Source: a virus (taxonomy: Duplodnaviria; Heunggongvirae; Uroviricota; Caudoviricetes). From it: a stretch of DNA of 43,597 bases. The stretch lies in the IMG/VR virus record IMGVR_UViG_2711768020_000006. One strand, written 5' to 3'. Made by a program: the position numbers and the translations under genes. Positions 1,817-18,062 of this stretch are shown here, piece after piece (the stretch's first letter is position 1; each line of letters starts with the position of its first letter). Under the pieces are notes generated by a model that was not told the origin of the DNA, searched no databases, and worked only from the letters and a program-made list of their open reading frames with translations.

Positions 1817-3904
1817 ATGTTTGCTTCAGTTAAAGAACTGGTTGGATTACCGGGGATGCCGGGAACGGAGCAAGGCGTTCGCTATTCAATCAGGAAGTAT
1901 GCAACCAGCGAAACCAGCAGACGCCGCAAGAAAGGCGCTAAAGGTTTTGAATACAGCATTGACTGTTTACCTGAAGTGACACAGCAGGCATTACGCGAAC
2001 GTTATGCCCTGCAACTGATGACGCAAAAAGCCGATGAATCACCGGCTCCGGTGGTGACAAAGGCCAGACGCTCGTCTGCCGTGGTTGATGCGGTGGAGGC
2101 ATATCGCGGATCACCACAACTGATGGTCGAACGCCTCAATGCCCTGACTGAAAACCAGCGCCAGGTGGCAGACGCACGCATTGCGATCGTCAGTGAGGTG
2201 CTGAAATTCACGCAACAACCCGGTTTCAGCTGCGCTAAAGCTATCCGGTTCCTCGTTAACAGCCTGGCACGATCACAACTGGACGAGCGCATTGTGGCAA
2301 TGGTTGAGACGGCGAACGCCAAAAAGGGAAACAGCCGCGCGTTGAGTGAAATCACGCTGAAACGCTGGATTGCGGCCTTTAACAAGGCACAGAACGCCGC
2401 TGAACGCCTGCTTTTACTGGCACCGGGTAAACGCCAGGAAATAAAAGCCGAAGATATTAACTGGCTGCCCGAATTTCTGGCGCAGTATCGCCAGTCAAAC
2501 GGCCGACCAATGACCGAGGCTTACGAGGATTTTGTTGCTGAATGGCAGCACCGGCACGCTGATGAGCCTTATATGCTCGATATCATGCCCTCTTATGACA
2601 CCATTCGCCGCGCAATGAAGAAACTGCCGGAAGTGGTGAAACAAAAAGGCCGGGTAACTGGCAGTGAATACCGTCAGCTTGAGGGATTCACGCGCCGCGA
2701 CTGGTCCAGAATGCCGGTGAATTATGTCTGGATTGGTGACGGTCACGGCATGAAGCTGAAATGCGCGCACCCGGTTCACGGGCGGCCATTCGCACCGGAA
2801 GTGACCTTTGTTATCGACGGTGGCACGCGCTTTGTGGTGGGCTGGAGCCTTGACCTGGCTGAAAATGTTTTCGCCGTAGCCGGTGCCATACAGCACGGTA
2901 TTCGCCATCATGGCAAACCGTTTCTGTATTACTCGGATAATGGCTCCGGGGAAACCGCCGACGTCCTGGATAAGGAGATTGTGGGGATACTGCCACGACT
3001 GGGGATTAATCACCCGACAGGGATTGCCGGTAATCCGCAGGGACGGGGCATTATCGAACGGCTTAACCGCACATTACCGATGCGCATAGCCCGTAAATAC
3101 CGCACCTATTTCGGGAAAGGAGCAGATCGCGAGACGTTACGTAAAACCAACCGCGATTTACGCTCGGCATTCAGTGCCCTGCAACAGGGCAAACGGCTGA
3201 ACGCCCGGCAGCAGTCAGCGATGCGTGATTTACCGTCCTGGTCTGAACTGATTGATGCCATTCGTGACGGTGTTGAGTGGTACAACAACCGGCCGCACGA
3301 TGAATTACCCATGAAGCCGAACGGTAAACATTACAGCCCGGCGGAGTTCAGAAAAAAACGCCTGGCGGAAGAGGACACGGAAATTGAATGGCTGTCCGAT
3401 GTTGAACTGCGGGATATGTTCCGGCCGATGGTGGAGCGCCCTGTAAGACGCTGTGAAATACGCTGGCTGAATAATATTTACTACGCGCCCGAGCTGCGTG
3501 ACGAGCATGGCCGTAAGGTACTTATCAGCTATGACATTCATGATGCCGAACGAATTACCGTGCGCCGCCCGGATGGCAGCGTGATTTGCGAGGCGGTATG
3601 GGACGGCAATAAACGCGAAGCCTTCCCTGTCAGCGCGGAATACTACAAACAGCAGCAGCGCCTTAAAGGCATGCGTAAACGCGCAGAGGAAAAAATCCGT
3701 GATGCCGAGGATGAGGTTGTCAACGTGCTGGAGCACAAGCCGCAGGAGCCCTGGCTGGAAAACATATACCGCCCTGTGGGTAATACGGTGACCGTTCAGC
3801 AACCGGTCGCTGACGATGAACCTGATGAAGAATACGAGCGTAATTTCCAGCGGGGATTGCAACTGCTCGAAGCGAAATTAAAAGAAAGTGATCCGCTGGC
3901 CTGA
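1817..3904 (+). CDS. A: Mu-type DDE transposase A
   Basis: 695 aa; N-terminal GLPGMPGTEQGVRY enhancer-binding-type motif; candidate DDE residues in VWIGDGHG, YYSDNGSGE and GIIERLN; position after ner. Confidence 0.9.
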   Translation: MFASVKELVGLPGMPGTEQGVRYSIRKYATSETSRRRKKGAKGFEYSIDCLPEVTQQALRERYALQLMTQKADESPAPVVTKARRSSAVVDAVEAYRGSPQLMVERLNALTENQRQVADARIAIVSEVLKFTQQPGFSCAKAIRFLVNSLARSQLDERIVAMVETANAKKGNSRALSEITLKRWIAAFNKAQNAAERLLLLAPGKRQEIKAEDINWLPEFLAQYRQSNGRPMTEAYEDFVAEWQHRHADEPYMLDIMPSYDTIRRAMKKLPEVVKQKGRVTGSEYRQLEGFTRRDWSRMPVNYVWIGDGHGMKLKCAHPVHGRPFAPEVTFVIDGGTRFVVGWSLDLAENVFAVAGAIQHGIRHHGKPFLYYSDNGSGETADVLDKEIVGILPRLGINHPTGIAGNPQGRGIIERLNRTLPMRIARKYRTYFGKGADRETLRKTNRDLRSAFSALQQGKRLNARQQSAMRDLPSWSELIDAIRDGVEWYNNRPHDELPMKPNGKHYSPAEFRKKRLAEEDTEIEWLSDVELRDMFRPMVERPVRRCEIRWLNNIYYAPELRDEHGRKVLISYDIHDAERITVRRPDGSVICEAVWDGNKREAFPVSAEYYKQQQRLKGMRKRAEEKIRDAEDEVVNVLEHKPQEPWLENIYRPVGNTVTVQQPVADDEPDEEYERNFQRGLQLLEAKLKESDPLA

Positions 3905-3977
3905 AATAAAAAAATAACCCGAGGGGTGACTCAGGTTATTTGAGGTTTCAGTCTCGGAGAATGCTGTCTCAAGCGAG

Positions 3978-4919
3978 GTGAATAATATGACCGATATTAA
4001 CGATGTAATCAAGACCATTGATGAACTTATTGATGGCGGCGTACTGACGCAGTATGCCATCGCCAGAGAGGCGGGAATTTCCGACGGCACATTATCGGCT
4101 TTCCGTAAGGGAAAATATAAAGGCGATAACGCTGCTGTGGCTGCTTCCCTGCGCTCCTGGTATGAGAACTGGAATAAACAAAGCGCACTGCCGGAACCGC
4201 CGCAGTTTGTGGAAACTCAGACAGTCCAGGAGCTGCGCGCACTGTTTCAGGCGGTTCGCCTGATGGGCTGTATTAACGTTATTGTGGGCGTACCGGGTGT
4301 GGGTAAAACGGCCACTGCCCGTAATTACTGCCAGGAGCAACCAAACACCTGGATGATCACCCTGTCACCCGCGCACTCCAGCGTCACGGAGTGTCTGCTG
4401 GAGCTGGCCGATGCGCTGGGGATTGATTACACCCGCGCGAACAAAGGGGCATTATCCCGCGCCATCCGCCGTCGCCTGATGGGAACGCGTGGACTGGTGA
4501 TTGTGGATGAGGCGGATCATCTTGGTATTGACGGTCTGGAGCAACTCCGGGCAATTCAGGACGCCACGGGGATCGGGATGGTGCTTATTGGTAACCCGCG
4601 CGGATTGTTTAAAGGTGGACGCCGCGCCTTTGATGATTTATCGCGCCTGTTCAGCCGTCTTGCCCGTACAAAACAACTTCGCAAGGCCAAAAAGGCGGAT
4701 GTGCTGGCCATTGCCATGGCGTGGGGGATCAGTGGTGAGGCCGAGCTGGCCGTCATGCAGGCTATCGCTGAAAAGCCGGGAGCGTTACGCGTTCTGACAC
4801 ATACGCTTAACCAGGCGTGGCTCACCGCCAGCGGTGAAGGCGCGGCGCTGACAGAAAAACATATTAATGCGGCCTTTAAAGAGGTTTATACCAACCCTGA
4901 ATTACTCTCACAGGTGTGA
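3978..4919 (+). CDS. B: Mu B-type transposition ATPase (AAA+ target DNA activator)
   Basis: 313 aa; Walker A GVPGVGKT and Walker B LVIVDEADHL; N-terminal HTH; follows A. Confidence 0.9.
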   Translation: MNNMTDINDVIKTIDELIDGGVLTQYAIAREAGISDGTLSAFRKGKYKGDNAAVAASLRSWYENWNKQSALPEPPQFVETQTVQELRALFQAVRLMGCINVIVGVPGVGKTATARNYCQEQPNTWMITLSPAHSSVTECLLELADALGIDYTRANKGALSRAIRRRLMGTRGLVIVDEADHLGIDGLEQLRAIQDATGIGMVLIGNPRGLFKGGRRAFDDLSRLFSRLARTKQLRKAKKADVLAIAMAWGISGEAELAVMQAIAEKPGALRVLTHTLNQAWLTASGEGAALTEKHINAAFKEVYTNPELLSQV

Positions 4920-7481: not shown

Positions 7482-7996
7482 TGTTCTTTAAAACATCAAA
7501 CCCTTCCGCGCTGGCTGCGTGGCAAAAATACCAGCAGGACTGCCAGAAAGTTAAGGATGAGGCAAAACGCCTTGAGGCCGTGCTGAATGTTGCGTGCCGG
7601 TCGGTATTTGTATCCGGTATCAGTGGATTTTACTTTAAGGGACTGCGTTTTACGGAGGACAAATATCCTTTTCATCGCGACTTATGGCGAAAACCGACTG
7701 CGTCGAATGGCTGGAGCTGCACACCGCGCACATCACGTATCCCTAAAACCCTGCGTGTTGCCTCTGATGAACTGAACAGTCTGTGGCGTGAATATTCGCC
7801 CGTCACGTATGCCAGAACCGATGCGCTGTTGTTCTGGTTGGGTATTGATTTCTCGGCAATCCTGTTTGGCCCTGTGAAGTGGTTCTGCGTTGACGATGTG
7901 ATTTACCTTCAGTGCGGCGTAAAACCCGCAAAACAGAAAATGACCGAAATACTGTCTGATGAGTTTTATGCTGCTGAAAAGCGAGTCAGGGGGTGA
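7481..7996 (+). CDS. Hypothetical early protein
   Basis: ORF; ATG overlaps the upstream stop. Confidence 0.4.
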   Translation: MFFKTSNPSALAAWQKYQQDCQKVKDEAKRLEAVLNVACRSVFVSGISGFYFKGLRFTEDKYPFHRDLWRKPTASNGWSCTPRTSRIPKTLRVASDELNSLWREYSPVTYARTDALLFWLGIDFSAILFGPVKWFCVDDVIYLQCGVKPAKQKMTEILSDEFYAAEKRVRG

Positions 7997-7999
7997 TGC

Positions 8000-8551
8000 A
8001 TGATGAAATTACAACCCATGGGACTAAAAGGTCGCGCCCCCGCTCATGTCCGTCCGTGGACACCTGAAGAAGATGCGCTGCTGATTGCGCTTTATTCATC
8101 CACCCCGGTTAAGGATATTGCTGCCAGAATAAAAAGAACTGTCTGGGCTGTATATAACCGGACTGGTGTATTGCGCAGTTCATACCCGGAGTTACTGAAA
8201 TATAAACACCCAAGATTTACACCTGATGAAGATAAGTTTATTCGAAAAAATGCCAGAACAATGACCTGCCAGCAAATGGGAGAATATCTCGGACGTAATA
8301 AAGATTCTGTCAGATGTCGGGCAGGAATGATTGGTGCTGGATTAACAAAGTGCGGAGAGTTACGCCCCGGCACGCGCATATCTGATGATGATGTACGTCT
8401 TATACGTGAGCTGCGTGATTCCGATTACCCACGCCGTCTGTCATTCCGGGAAATTGGCGAAAAGTTTGGAATATCTGAACATTCTGCTCACGCAGTTTAT
8501 TACCGTCGCCGGACTGCCGAGGACGCTGTATTACGGGAGTTAACGCCATGA
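8000..8551 (+). CDS. Hypothetical DNA-binding protein with two Myb/SANT-like repeats and a C-terminal HTH
   Basis: Repeats WTPEEDALLIALY...W and FTPDEDKFIRKNA... seen directly; C-terminal LSFREIGEKFGISEHS looks like an HTH. Confidence 0.45.
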   Translation: MMKLQPMGLKGRAPAHVRPWTPEEDALLIALYSSTPVKDIAARIKRTVWAVYNRTGVLRSSYPELLKYKHPRFTPDEDKFIRKNARTMTCQQMGEYLGRNKDSVRCRAGMIGAGLTKCGELRPGTRISDDDVRLIRELRDSDYPRRLSFREIGEKFGISEHSAHAVYYRRRTAEDAVLRELTP

Positions 8552-8880
8552 TAACGACCTTATTTGTTGAATCAGATGAACCTCTTGTGTGTGCCGCCGG
8601 AATGCCGCTCTGTGGCGGAACGCTGACCGGCGTTTATTTCGGGGATTTGCGCGGTTATCCCTGGCATTCACTGGATGACGCATTTCCGCCTGATATGGAG
8701 GCTGTCGTGCTGATTGTTCAGTATGGTGACCAACAGGAACTGCGCATCGGCCATATGGGGTATGAAGGCTTTTTTATTGATGAAGAAACCGGAGCCTGCC
8801 TTGAAGATGAGGACGGACAGGTGACGCACTGGTGCCATCTTTCGGCCTTGCCGGAATTACAGGGGATACATAATGGATGA
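8548..8880 (+). CDS. Hypothetical early protein
   Basis: ORF coupled (ATGA) to the upstream gene. Confidence 0.4.
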   Translation: MITTLFVESDEPLVCAAGMPLCGGTLTGVYFGDLRGYPWHSLDDAFPPDMEAVVLIVQYGDQQELRIGHMGYEGFFIDEETGACLEDEDGQVTHWCHLSALPELQGIHNG

Positions 8881-9016
8881 GCAAATTGTTGAATGTCCCA
8901 CCTGTGGAAATGAGGACCCGGAGTATCTGAAAGAGTGCCCACATTGTGGTGAGATAAAATGTAACCACTGCGATATGGGCGACGACACTGCATGTATAAA
9001 TTGTGAGGATGAATAA
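8873..9016 (+). CDS. Small zinc-ribbon protein (47 aa, four Cys pairs: CPTC, CPHC, CNHC, CINC)
   Basis: Translated by eye; absent from the ORF track because it is under 60 aa. Confidence 0.45.
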   Translation: MDEQIVECPTCGNEDPEYLKECPHCGEIKCNHCDMGDDTACINCEDE

Positions 9017-9017
9017 T

Positions 9018-9305
9018 ATGGAAAAAGAAATCAAATTTGCGCCTAAATCTATCGACGAAGAACTGGCTAAAATCGGCATGCTTGAACGTATGCGGGACAT
9101 TATCGAATATGCGATAAAAGAAAATCTTGCAGCCAGAGAAGCCCTTTTGATAATGGAGCGGGAGATTAACCTGATTAAGGATGCTGTATCTCTGGATAAT
9201 AAAATAGCCCGCGAGGAATACGTTCGCCGTAGGCTCGGTGTTGATGGTTCAGCAATTCTTACATCTGAACATTATGCAAAAATTTTTAATCTTTTTCAGC
9301 GGTAA
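9018..9305 (+). CDS. Hypothetical early protein
   Basis: ORF; ATG at 9018 with GAGGA Shine-Dalgarno preferred over the tracker start at 9003. Confidence 0.4.
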   Translation: MEKEIKFAPKSIDEELAKIGMLERMRDIIEYAIKENLAAREALLIMEREINLIKDAVSLDNKIAREEYVRRRLGVDGSAILTSEHYAKIFNLFQR

Positions 9306-9525
9306 TCCCCATACAGGCCCGGAGATTGTCGAAATGCCAGTCGGTATTAATATATGAGCCATCCTGGATATCTTCTGCATTTTCCGGGGTAGAGTTTTTT
9401 TGAGCGAGATTGATAATATGTATTGCCTCCTCACGGGAAATCAGCCCCTTATCGAACAGGGTTACCATAAGATTTCCAGCCATTGTGAATGCGGCAACAT
9501 CAAGTGCATTTTTTATATCTGACAT
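9286..9525 (-). CDS. Hypothetical small protein encoded antisense to the early operon
   Basis: 79-aa ORF with AAGGA Shine-Dalgarno 9 nt upstream; it fills a plus-strand coding gap (9306-9595). Confidence 0.5.
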   Translation of the reverse strand: MSDIKNALDVAAFTMAGNLMVTLFDKGLISREEAIHIINLAQKNSTPENAEDIQDGSYINTDWHFDNLRACMGITAEKD

Positions 9526-9553
9526 AGATTTTTCCTTTTATGTTAATTGACAT

Positions 9554-9582
9554 GGCGGTGCGGTAACACCGCCCATTTTTTA
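9554..9582 (+). terminator. Rho-independent terminator candidate (GGCGGTG-cggtaa-CACCGCC followed by a T-run)
   Basis: Hairpin and T-tract seen directly. Confidence 0.5.
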
Positions 9583-9595
9583 TGGAGCCACGATA

Positions 9596-10108
9596 ATGAA
9601 TCGCGCTTCCCTGATTACCTTAATACATGTCGCAAAACGCGATCTACAGCTTGACCATGATACCTATACATCCGCGCTGCTGGCAGCCACCGGCAAATCC
9701 AGTTGCCGTGATATGTCACCCGGTGAGTTATCCCGCGTGCTGGATGTTTTCAAAAAACGCGGTTTTAAAGTGCGTCAGAAGCCGGTTAACCGGGCCTTAA
9801 AACCGGGTACGGTGACCGCCAAAATTCGCGCCATCTGGAAAGTGATGCACCGGCAGGGATTTATCTCTGATGGCGGGGAAACGGCCCTTAACCGCTGGGT
9901 GAAATCGCAGACGGCCGCGCAGAACGACGGCGAAGGTGTGGCTAACTGGCAGTGGCTGGAGCAACAACCCGCGCTGGCCTCTGATGTGCTGGAGCGTCTC
10001 AAACGCTGGCACCGCCGCAAAATGCTGGCAGCCCTGGATATGTCGGAACGTGCAGTGATGAGTTATGAGCGTGTTTGCAGGCTGTATGAAAAATCATTCC
10101 CCCGTTAA
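9596..10108 (+). CDS. gemA: GemA-like early protein (Mu gp16 family)
   Basis: 170 aa; position just upstream of the Mor/C-type activator and general resemblance to the Mu GemA family (from memory). Confidence 0.55.
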   Translation: MNRASLITLIHVAKRDLQLDHDTYTSALLAATGKSSCRDMSPGELSRVLDVFKKRGFKVRQKPVNRALKPGTVTAKIRAIWKVMHRQGFISDGGETALNRWVKSQTAAQNDGEGVANWQWLEQQPALASDVLERLKRWHRRKMLAALDMSERAVMSYERVCRLYEKSFPR

Positions 10109-10113
10109 CCCCA

Positions 10114-10143
10114 AATCCCGCCACAGCGCGGGATTTTTATTTT
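10114..10143 (+). terminator. Rho-independent terminator (AATCCCGC-cacagc-GCGGGATT followed by TTTTTATTTT)
   Basis: Hairpin and T-tract seen directly; lies at the end of the early region as the Mu t9.2 terminator does. Confidence 0.7.
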
Positions 10144-10178
10144 AAACTTGCCCTGTGTAATGATGACCGGAGGCGGGT

Positions 10179-10601
10179 ATGGCTGAAACACAGATGAGCA
10201 TGTTTGGTGACAGCGAACAGCTGCACGCGCTGATTGACCGTCTGGATGATATTCCTGATGATGAGCTGAAAAAGAACTGGCCCGGCACGCTGCGGGACCT
10301 GGTTGATGTGATCAGTGCTGAACTGCACCGTCAGGGGATTGAACCTGCTCAGGCGGGAATGCTTGCCCGTAAGGTTGCAGCCGCACAGGCCGGGTACATG
10401 GGCGGGCGTGGTTATTATCTCCCGGTCGGTGAATCCCTTTTCACCGAACTGCGCAATAATGAAATTTTTTCCCGCTGGAGCCAGGGCGAAAAAATTGAAA
10501 CCCTGCGCCGCCACTACCAGATGTCAGAGACGCAGATTTACTCCGTTATCCGCAACCAGCGTCGCCTGCATCAGGAACGCACGCAGCCACGGCTTTTCTG
10601 A
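10179..10601 (+). CDS. Mor/C-family transcriptional activator (middle/late gene activator)
   Basis: 140 aa; position between gemA and the lysis genes; C-terminal HTH (YQMSETQIYSVIRNQRR). Whether it corresponds to Mor or C cannot be decided. Confidence 0.65.
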   Translation: MAETQMSMFGDSEQLHALIDRLDDIPDDELKKNWPGTLRDLVDVISAELHRQGIEPAQAGMLARKVAAAQAGYMGGRGYYLPVGESLFTELRNNEIFSRWSQGEKIETLRRHYQMSETQIYSVIRNQRRLHQERTQPRLF

Positions 10602-16747: not shown

Positions 16748-18062
16748 TTTAGGTTATGCCGCCACGCTTCCCTCAAAAGAGACGGTGGCATACTTCCGCG
16801 CCAAAGGGGCGCATATCAGCTGGAACTGGTTCGAAACAGACGCGGATGTTCATGCCCGCTCATTCACGGCAGCAAAAACGGCACGGCTGGATGTGGTAAC
16901 CACATTACAGGCCGAAGTGCAGCGGGCCATTGATGAGGGGATTTCACAGAAAGAATTTATCCGCACACTGACGCCACGCCTGCAAAAGCTGGGATGGTGG
17001 GGAAAGCAGATTGTGGTGGACAGCGACGGTAACGCGGAAGAAGTGCAGCAGGGCAGTCCCCGTCGTCTGGCGCTGATTTACAACGTGAACACCCGTGTGG
17101 CTTACAATGCCGGGCGTTACACGCAGATGATGAACAACACGGACACGCATCCGTTCTGGCAGTATGTGGCGGTCATGGACAGCCGTACCCGCCCGTCGCA
17201 TTCCGCCCTTAACGGTCTGGTATTCCGCTATGACGATCCGTTCTGGAAAACACACTACCCGCCCAATGGCTGGAACTGCCGCTGCCGTGTGCGGCCATTG
17301 TCTCAGGCCCGTCTGGATGCAATGGGGTTATCCGTTTCATCCGGTGAGGATCATCTCTCCACCCGCAATGTTGAGGCTGGCGTGGATAAACAGACCGGAG
17401 AAGTCAGAGAAATGCCGGTGACCACATATTCAGATGGCGCCAGAACCATGACACCGGATGTGGGCTGGTCATATAACCCCGGCTCGGCAGCGTTCGGCAC
17501 AGACCAGGCGCTGATCCGCAAACTGATCGAGGTGAAAAGCCCGGCGTTACGGGAAATGGTGGTTCAGGAGATGAACAACAGCCCGGAGCGGCAGCTGGCG
17601 TTCCGCATCTGGGCAAAAAACATCATGCAGACCCGGCGAGGTGGTAACGATATCCGCACGCTGGGCTTTATGACTGAAAGCATTGCGCAGGCAGTGGAAA
17701 GCCGGACGGGAACGCCACCGGCCCGCCTGCTGGCGATGAGCGGTAAAAATGTGCTCCATGCGGACAGTGTGAAACATCAGAATGACGGCATCGCTCTGAC
17801 GCCGGAGGACTTCGGGCGCTTACCGGCAATGCTGGCAAGGCCAAAAGCGGTACTGTGGGACAAACGGCACAACAATCTGATGTATATCGTGGAAAATCAG
17901 GATGGCAGTGTGCAGATTGCCGTTAATGCACCGTACAGTCTGAAACGTCAGCCCGACAAACTGGATGTGATTGTGAATGCTTACCGGGTTATCAATATGG
18001 ATAAGCTGAAATCGGATATCCGGGGCGGAATGCTTGAGGTGCTGGAAGGACAAATTGATTAA
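16731..18062 (+). CDS. MuF-like head morphogenesis protein (Mu gp30/F)
   Basis: Conserved MuF motif region VMDSRTRPSHSALNGLVF...NGWNCRCRV. Confidence 0.8.
   Translation: MAQGIDLGYAATLPSKETVAYFRAKGAHISWNWFETDADVHARSFTAAKTARLDVVTTLQAEVQRAIDEGISQKEFIRTLTPRLQKLGWWGKQIVVDSDGNAEEVQQGSPRRLALIYNVNTRVAYNAGRYTQMMNNTDTHPFWQYVAVMDSRTRPSHSALNGLVFRYDDPFWKTHYPPNGWNCRCRVRPLSQARLDAMGLSVSSGEDHLSTRNVEAGVDKQTGEVREMPVTTYSDGARTMTPDVGWSYNPGSAAFGTDQALIRKLIEVKSPALREMVVQEMNNSPERQLAFRIWAKNIMQTRRGGNDIRTLGFMTESIAQAVESRTGTPPARLLAMSGKNVLHADSVKHQNDGIALTPEDFGRLPAMLARPKAVLWDKRHNNLMYIVENQDGSVQIAVNAPYSLKRQPDKLDVIVNAYRVINMDKLKSDIRGGMLEVLEGQID

Follow-up and report, generated by a model that had tools for sequence, protein, structure and literature searches.

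The window, a stretch of 43,597 nucleotides of viral DNA that was analysed at its full length (IMG/VR record IMGVR_UViG_2711768020_000006), is a Mu-like prophage of Escherichia coli. It encodes a repressor, ner, transposase A and B, a semi-essential early region, gemA, an activator of the Mor/C family and lysozyme. Inside its rightward early operon lies a small gene on the minus strand (9286..9525), here called the gp15-like gene, which starts with ATG and encodes an acidic protein (pI 4.5) of 79 amino acids (aa) that is predicted to be all-helical. On one side it is convergent with, and overlaps by 20 nt, a homologue of Mu E15 (the gp14-like gene; 9018..9305, plus strand; phrog_6075, E 6e-44). 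On the other side, across a gap of 70 bp, it is divergent from gemA (9596..10108, plus strand; PF06252, E 1.8e-28), a gene of the gp16 family that the Prokaryotic Genome Annotation Pipeline (PGAP) names 'gp16 family protein'. Two hairpins that resemble intrinsic terminators belong to the locus: hairpin A, on the plus strand (9554..9583), stands just before gemA, and hairpin B, on the minus strand (9196..9235), lies within the coding sequence of the gp14-like gene. Several complete E. coli chromosomes match the region around the gp15-like open reading frame (ORF) at 100% identity.

A preliminary description of this DNA had pointed to a reverse ORF of 79 aa with a good Shine-Dalgarno sequence. 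On comparative grounds it is a genuine antisense gene, real and conserved at the level of the protein. The sequence AAGGA (9533..9537, minus strand) stands 7 nt before the ATG, and AGGA or GGAG is found 7-9 nt upstream of the start codon in 12/12 of the gp15-family homologues listed. Homologues at 33-49% identity retain an N-terminal DVAAFTLAGNLL..L..KG.IS.EEA and a C-terminal DWHLDNL, with shared motifs along the whole length. The sense frame is the only one that is open in all 14 of 14 homologues; the antisense frames are open for 17-84 codons, inconsistently. The ratio of nonsynonymous to synonymous substitution (dN/dS) is 0.23 for the window and L013, the closest informative pair. Across the window-type family the proportion of nonsynonymous differences (pN) is 0.34-0.51 and that of synonymous differences (pS) 0.67-0.92, synonymous sites being saturated. 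Only nine proteins were returned when 1.84 billion representatives were searched exhaustively with phmmer, and PGAP lists the ORF in an identical prophage as a hypothetical protein (WP_001280088.1). All homologues with recovered surroundings lie antisense inside a run of oppositely oriented genes. Where gemA can be identified nearby, the gp15-like gene is divergent from it at a distance of ~70 bp; in locus L030 its divergent neighbour is instead the gene immediately before gemA.

The gene contains a run of seven A on its coding strand (9395..9401; T7 on the plus strand), at which some assemblies carry single-base indels. The resulting products range from 59 to 92 aa, and both alternative frames are seen downstream of the run (alignment A1). 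All complete genomes checked retain the 79-aa frame, and the indel variants come mainly from draft or Logan assemblies; for this reason programmed frameshifting and phase variation at the run were set aside. Programmed slippage is a less likely source of the variants than sequencing error or occasional inactivation.

The window protein matches phrog_32893 over its full length (E 1.3e-45), and Mu gp15 matches the same family at E 6e-4. When the profile of the window family was aligned by hhalign with residues 1-54 of Mu gp15, a probability of 93% (E 3e-7) was obtained. Similarity is thus seen at the profile level over residues 1-54; identity between the two proteins is only ~19-28%, and a pairwise BLASTP comparison of them was not significant. 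In the RefSeq record of Mu (NC_000929), Mup15/gp15 (NP_050619.1, 88 aa) occupies the minus strand in the slot between gp14 (E15) and gemA, and D108 has an unannotated gp15 homologue in the matching position. Mu gene 15 (phrog_8747) and the window gene share this slot, the minus strand and the convergent overlap with gp14. Common to both loci are also a GGCGGTG-N6-CACCGCC hairpin before gemA and a minus-strand terminator inside gp14. They differ in the U-tract of hairpin A, which is far better in the window than in Mu, and the C-terminal motif is DWHLDNL in the window type and LFNKLWASRP in the D108 type. Profile similarity and conserved synteny together show the window ORF to be a divergent counterpart of Mu gene 15. 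The change of strand, which had been described as unusual for such an operon, is therefore no oddity of the window prophage: a reversed gp15/Mup15 is found in the equivalent slot of Mu, D108 and many E. coli and Klebsiella prophages, and the arrangement is normal for Mu and its close relatives.

A newer record of Mu, GenBank AF083977.1, speaks against the minus-strand gene, as gp15 is replaced there by a plus-strand ORF of 55 aa, Mu_54. The latter lies at 7960-8127 (plus strand; 3961-4128 in the Mu locus L001) and gp15 at 7896-8162 (minus strand; 3897-4163 in L001). Mu_54 has no significant match in PHROG (E 0.027), and the comparative data favour the minus-strand gp15 over Mu_54 in Mu.

Hairpins before gemA and inside the gp14-like gene

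Hairpin A consists of GGCGGTG (9554-9560), a 6-nt loop CGGTAA and CACCGCC (9567-9573), followed by a CATTTTTTAT tail with six T at 9576-9581. The 7-bp stem contains six GC pairs and has by itself a predicted energy of -13.2 kcal/mol. It ends 22 nt before the ATG of gemA (9596); the hairpin with its tail ends 13 nt before it, and the Shine-Dalgarno sequence of gemA, GGAG, follows at 9584-9587. All sequence features of an intrinsic terminator are present, as had been proposed for this plus-strand hairpin.

Terminator-like sites were sought on both strands of the window with strict criteria (a perfect 7-bp stem, at least six GC pairs, a loop of 3-8, and at least six T in eight). Two places only were found, hairpin A and 41561-41580; they account for three overlapping hits, compared with a mean of 0.07 in 100 dinucleotide shuffles (distinct stem starts). 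A looser scan gave no excess (13 sites, with 13.7 expected), and the argument therefore rests on the quality and conservation of hairpin A, not on the number of sites. The other strict site (41561-41587 with its tail, plus strand), near the right end of the window, reads GAGGCCCG-GGGG-CGGGCCTC and then TGTTTTT.

Lack of conservation in related prophages had been named beforehand as a ground for abandoning the hairpin, and it is conserved. In Mu, in D108 and in every gp15-bearing prophage for which gemA was recovered, an equivalent hairpin lies 19-22 nt ahead of the start of gemA. L030 is an exception, as the hairpin stands there before the gene that lies upstream of gemA. The main forms are GGCGGTG-TTGCAG-CACCGCC, GGCGGTG-CGGTAA-CACCGCC and GGCGGTG-CTGTAA-CACCGCC. 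In the variant stems GGCCGCGC-TAAC-GCGTGGCC, GGTGGCGG-N8-CCGCCGCC and GGCGGC-N8-GCCGCC, pairing is kept without the sequence. Across 17 distinct sequences (alignment A5) 99.2% of cells are paired and three of the seven pairs have changed on both sides; the observed covariation score was reached by none of 500 shuffles. Three wobble cells are G.U pairs on the plus strand and would be C.A mismatches on the minus strand. This pattern of pairing shows hairpin A to be conserved and plus-strand-specific. Predicted stem energies of the variants range from -10 to -17 kcal/mol, with 3-7 U in the nine bases after the stem; with its six U in a row the window has one of the best tails, and Mu (CCCUUUCC) has one of the weakest.

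The preliminary description had also considered a cis-acting RNA element that controls read-through into gemA and the activator gene. A conserved plus-strand hairpin is compatible with this. On the other side, no alternative (antiterminator) structure was found for hairpin A, and a search of 9286-9600 against Rfam 15 gave no covariance-model match even at E up to 1. A plain attenuating terminator would be the simpler reading.

Among loci with GemA 84-100% identical to that of the window, hairpin A is present exactly where a reversed gene or its deletion remnant precedes gemA, and absent where a same-strand gene abuts gemA. The hairpin therefore appears to travel with the reversed cassette and not with gemA. 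Distant GemA loci (in Pectobacterium, Pantoea, Mixta, Pseudomonas and others) have neither reversed gene nor hairpin.

Two prophages carry IS1 at this spot. In E. coli 2012EL-2448 the element is inserted inside the loop of hairpin A (L004, ~2366-3133), with a 9-bp target duplication; in strain 2018-166 (L005) IS1 is found together with a deletion that extends from gemA to the tail genes. Decay of both prophages is thus seen at the position of hairpin A.

Hairpin B lies 50 nt past the stop codon of the gp15-like gene. Its stem is read from plus-strand positions 9206-9235 and its U-tract ATTTTATTAT is the complement of plus-strand 9196-9205, all within the gp14-like coding motif NKIAREEYVRRRLG. 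The hairpin is also found in Mu, D108 and all other gp14-bearing loci, and its Mu counterpart is listed in AF083977.1 as a TransTermHP terminator (7839-7873). When 15 distinct sequences were aligned without gaps (alignment A6), 88.5% of the cells were found to pair. Pair 19-38 changes from G-C to A-U in four sequences; on one arm this is an Arg-to-His or Arg-to-Gln substitution in gp14, and on the opposite arm a C-to-U change that is synonymous in most of the four. On the minus strand 19 cells form U.G or G.U pairs, where a plus-strand RNA would have A.C mismatches. In most variants the minus-strand fold is predicted to be the more stable of the two. Hairpin B is therefore best read as a minus-strand RNA structure that gp14 must encode, and the comparison shows it to be conserved and strand-specific. 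The copy in the window has one A.C mismatch and a predicted energy of -10.8 kcal/mol, compared with -16.8 kcal/mol in close relatives.

A proposed leftward unit in the early operon

A probable, though by no means secure, reading of these features is that the gene 15 counterpart forms a self-contained leftward unit, with hairpin B as its terminator, and that hairpin A attenuates rightward early transcripts. Termination activity, promoter, timing of expression and function of the protein are what we infer from the sequence. Gene 15, with an acidic and helical product of ~75-90 aa, would be read leftward, head-on within the rightward early operon. The unit would comprise the Shine-Dalgarno sequence, the ORF and hairpin B, and it is because the gene has its own Shine-Dalgarno sequence and its own putative terminator that we suggest it to be self-contained. 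Rightward early transcripts would pass gene 15 in antisense and then be stopped or attenuated before gemA at hairpin A, a plus-strand intrinsic terminator that might vary in strength among phages and be strong in the window. Since the two hairpins are opposed and strand-specific, the interval of ~330 nt between them seems to be set up for transcription on both strands, each transcript ending at the far side. Gene 15 might be made while the early promoter is silent and be opposed by antisense early transcription after induction.

The gene that follows gemA (10179-10601) is the only Mor/C-family gene of the window (PF08765, E 6.7e-31). Its product has 40% identity to Mu C and 28% to Mor, and there is no mor gene coupled to gemA; the window phage thus seemingly runs on a single activator. 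A second terminator-like hairpin (10113-10145, within the plus-strand stretch 10113-10178), AAATCCCGC-N6-GCGGGATTT followed by TTATTTT, lies between gemA and this gene. Given its position before the only Mor/C-family gene, there might be two attenuators in series between the early promoter and the late activator. Together, hairpin A and the 10113-10145 hairpin would restrict the read-through that reaches gemA and the only late activator, which is C-like, and such a restriction would delay or buffer the late programme.

The early-operon terminator of Mu at 9179-9200, which we take to be t9.2, overlaps the middle promoter Pm and likewise has a GC-rich stem and a T-run before a regulatory gene. 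In AF083977.1 this terminator is annotated inside the Mor-activated middle promoter (9163-9233), a layout that the 10113-10145 hairpin before the C-like activator resembles. Hairpin A is unlike the Mu terminator: it stands 22 nt before a start codon, too near for a promoter to fit in between, it is coupled to a reversed cassette, and it has no arguable activator site. From general knowledge, the proposed arrangement also resembles excludon-like units, in which opposed units overlap across one gene with a terminator at each far end; the difference is that in the window both transcripts, and any regulatory outcome, are putative.

Several observations weigh against the leftward unit with an attenuating hairpin A. 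A built-in scan and scoring of 14 loci (12 with gp15, two with DUF2513) brought up no convincing sigma-70 promoter for the reversed gene; the candidates are weak and inconsistently placed, and the best ones put the -35 element in the hairpin loop and leave too short a leader. A 'semi-early promoter' is annotated over the Mu hairpin in AF083977.1 (8151-8217). The early transcript of Mu encodes Mor (PMC2582627), so that hairpin A is no complete stop in that phage and would have to be leaky, in agreement with the weak CCCUUUCC tail. The link between hairpin A and a reversed gene stems from few independent recombination events and has exceptions, since the hairpin follows a same-strand gene in L099 and three DUF2513-like loci lack it.

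Searches for a function of the protein must be counted on the same side. Pfam gave nothing informative for the window protein and its relatives. PADLOC at E up to 1 had no match for the window protein, Mu gp15 or the DUF2513 protein, a sequence profile search of the PDB returned only weak Hsp70-lid matches (best E 0.027), and Foldseek against BFVD gave nothing at E below 0.5. An AlphaFold2 model of the gp15-like protein has four helices and a predicted local distance difference test (pLDDT) score of 80. No SHOCT or SHOCT-like Pfam match exceeded the gathering score, and the window protein had none at all; sub-threshold SHOCT-like matches occur in four among 16 family members (PF22746 in three, PF20612 in one; best E 0.057-0.08). 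The resemblance of G-x-I-S-x-E-E-A to SHOCT may serve as a lead only. Our best guess is that the protein is a small protein-binding accessory factor, rather than a DNA-binding regulator or an enzyme.

A literature search found nothing on gp15, on a promoter upstream of gemA or on antisense transcription in Mu. A paper with RNA sequencing of Pseudomonas phage Fc02 was set aside, as it concerns another region.

Alternative cargo and competing readings

In sister Mu-like prophages the slot before gemA is filled by a reversed gene of the DUF2513 family, with a product of 134-151 aa (L006, 1545-1955, minus strand; also L065, L090, L100 and L135). Where GemA is 84-92% identical, the gp15-like gene is either replaced by the reversed DUF2513 gene or absent. 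The DUF2513 cassette likewise ends in a minus-strand hairpin with a U-rich tail. No gp14-like gene was detected in the DUF2513 loci, and the gp14 homologues in a tblastn survey occur only in loci that also carry gp15. One deletion derivative retains hairpin A only. Kinship between gp15 and DUF2513 was rejected (hhalign probability 0.3%). By these comparisons, the slot before gemA behaves as a site for alternative reversed cargo in Mu-type prophages.

Such exchange gives some weight to the suggestion, already made in the preliminary description, that the reversed gene is a moron. It would then be an exchangeable moron-type or lysogenic-conversion cassette, expressed from the repressed prophage, and its target would be the host or a competing phage. 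It might serve, for example, in exclusion, in anti-defence or in modulation of the host, with hairpins that merely insulate the cassette. We regard this as possible but doubtful, both for the cassette as such and for these roles. Like the morons of temperate phages, the gp15-like cassette consists of one small gene that has translation signals and a putative terminator (hairpin B) of its own. It has an unrelated gene as its replacement in sister prophages, in the equivalent slot and with similar flanking hairpins, and the derivative with only a hairpin left points the same way. The guanine plus cytosine (GC) content is 41-43% over the gp13-gp14-gp15 block (8900-9600) and 50-59% on both sides. 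The proteins are small and acidic, and the adjoining gem region of Mu is reportedly constitutive in lysogens, to judge from the title of Paolozzi and Ghelardini (1992) as cited in PMC3820752. These points are set against others. Unlike a recent moron insertion, the gene is old, vertically conserved in the Mu clade and nearly always inherited together with gp14; it is reversed and overlaps a backbone gene, and the low-GC block extends over gp13 and gp14. Neither the PADLOC models nor the fold and family searches were informative, and the promoter search identified none. The moron suggestion is thus borne out in part only.

Beside the gp14-like gene, an ORF of 47 aa with a four-cysteine zinc ribbon (8873-9016, plus strand) is the homologue of Mu gp13/E14 (phrog_5584, E 3e-26). 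It was left out of the PGAP annotation in the identical prophage of strain DETEC-S792. Farther away, PGAP places a 'tRNA-OTHER' between head-morphogenesis genes of an identical prophage (18600-18684 in L003, equivalent to ~17799-17883 on the minus strand of the window); ARAGORN found no tRNA and no tmRNA in the window.

The 'semi-early promoter' over the Mu hairpin makes a different role for hairpin A a live rival, namely that of a 5'-terminal stem-loop, or of a processing or stability element, of a gemA-mor mRNA that starts from a promoter just upstream. We think this unlikely. The promoter annotated at 8151-8217 in AF083977.1 spans the hairpin, many loci have AT-rich hexamers that resemble a -10 element 2-6 nt before the stem (AATAT-GGCGG in alignment A5 is an example), the U-tract of the Mu tail is weak, and the spacing of 19-22 nt between hairpin and gemA ATG is fixed. 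It is set against this that no -35 element is conserved, that the tail has at least five U in 10 of the 17 variants, and that the six consecutive U of the window would be needless in a 5' stabiliser.

A more ambitious version of the leftward unit, for which we hold out only slight hope, is a convergent sense/antisense switch, made up of the reversed gene and the two strand-specific terminators, by which entry into the late programme would be gated. In the lysogen, hairpin A together with the leftward transcription of gene 15 would keep transcripts that leak from the early promoter out of gemA and the activator gene. Once the prophage is induced, gene 15 would be silenced through antisense interference by early transcription, and only a small fraction of read-through would get as far as the activator. 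With so small a fraction, build-up of the activator would depend on amplification of the template. Middle transcription of Mu requires DNA replication (PMC2582627), and the switch, if it is true, would supply a concrete mechanism for that requirement.

Action of hairpin A as double-stranded DNA, either as a palindromic protein-binding site or as a recombination boundary for cassette exchange, is improbable. The GGCGG/CCGCC core is nearly invariant despite diverged flanks and differing cargo, and mosaic breakpoints adjoin the hairpin. The Mu terminator 9179-9200, for its part, lies within the Mor-activated middle promoter 9163-9233, and its dyad is presumably also the site of Mor binding. Against this, the variant stems GGCCGCGC/GCGTGGCC, GGTGGCGG/CCGCCGCC and GGCGGC/GCCGCC preserve pairing and not sequence, and the G.U pairs are sensible in plus-strand RNA only. 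With a Mor/C-type site centred at -43.5 (PMC2582627), rightward transcription would begin within gemA and leftward transcription within the gp15 ORF, and hairpin A as a Mor/C binding dyad was rejected on this spacing.

Hardly any credence is left for the reverse ORF being a chance open frame, with the real gene, if any, on the plus strand: Mu_54 of AF083977.1 and the A7-run frameshift variants in some assemblies might suggest it, and it is already refuted, on comparative grounds, by the sense frame that alone is open throughout the 14 homologues, motifs kept over the whole length at 33-49% identity, pN below pS, the conserved Shine-Dalgarno sequence, the intact frame of complete genomes and the insignificant PHROG match of Mu_54.

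The gp15 family had already been annotated, and the additions made here, the terminator embedded in gp14 and the support for a minus-strand gp15 in Mu, are modest. The conflict between the two public annotations of Mu is settled on the side of the minus-strand gene. Read as a leftward unit, gene 15 would be bounded by a putative terminator that the opposing gene carries within its coding region. If hairpin A truly attenuates, it would be a testable control point for the expression of gemA and of the late activator, within a general picture of Mu biology that is unchanged.

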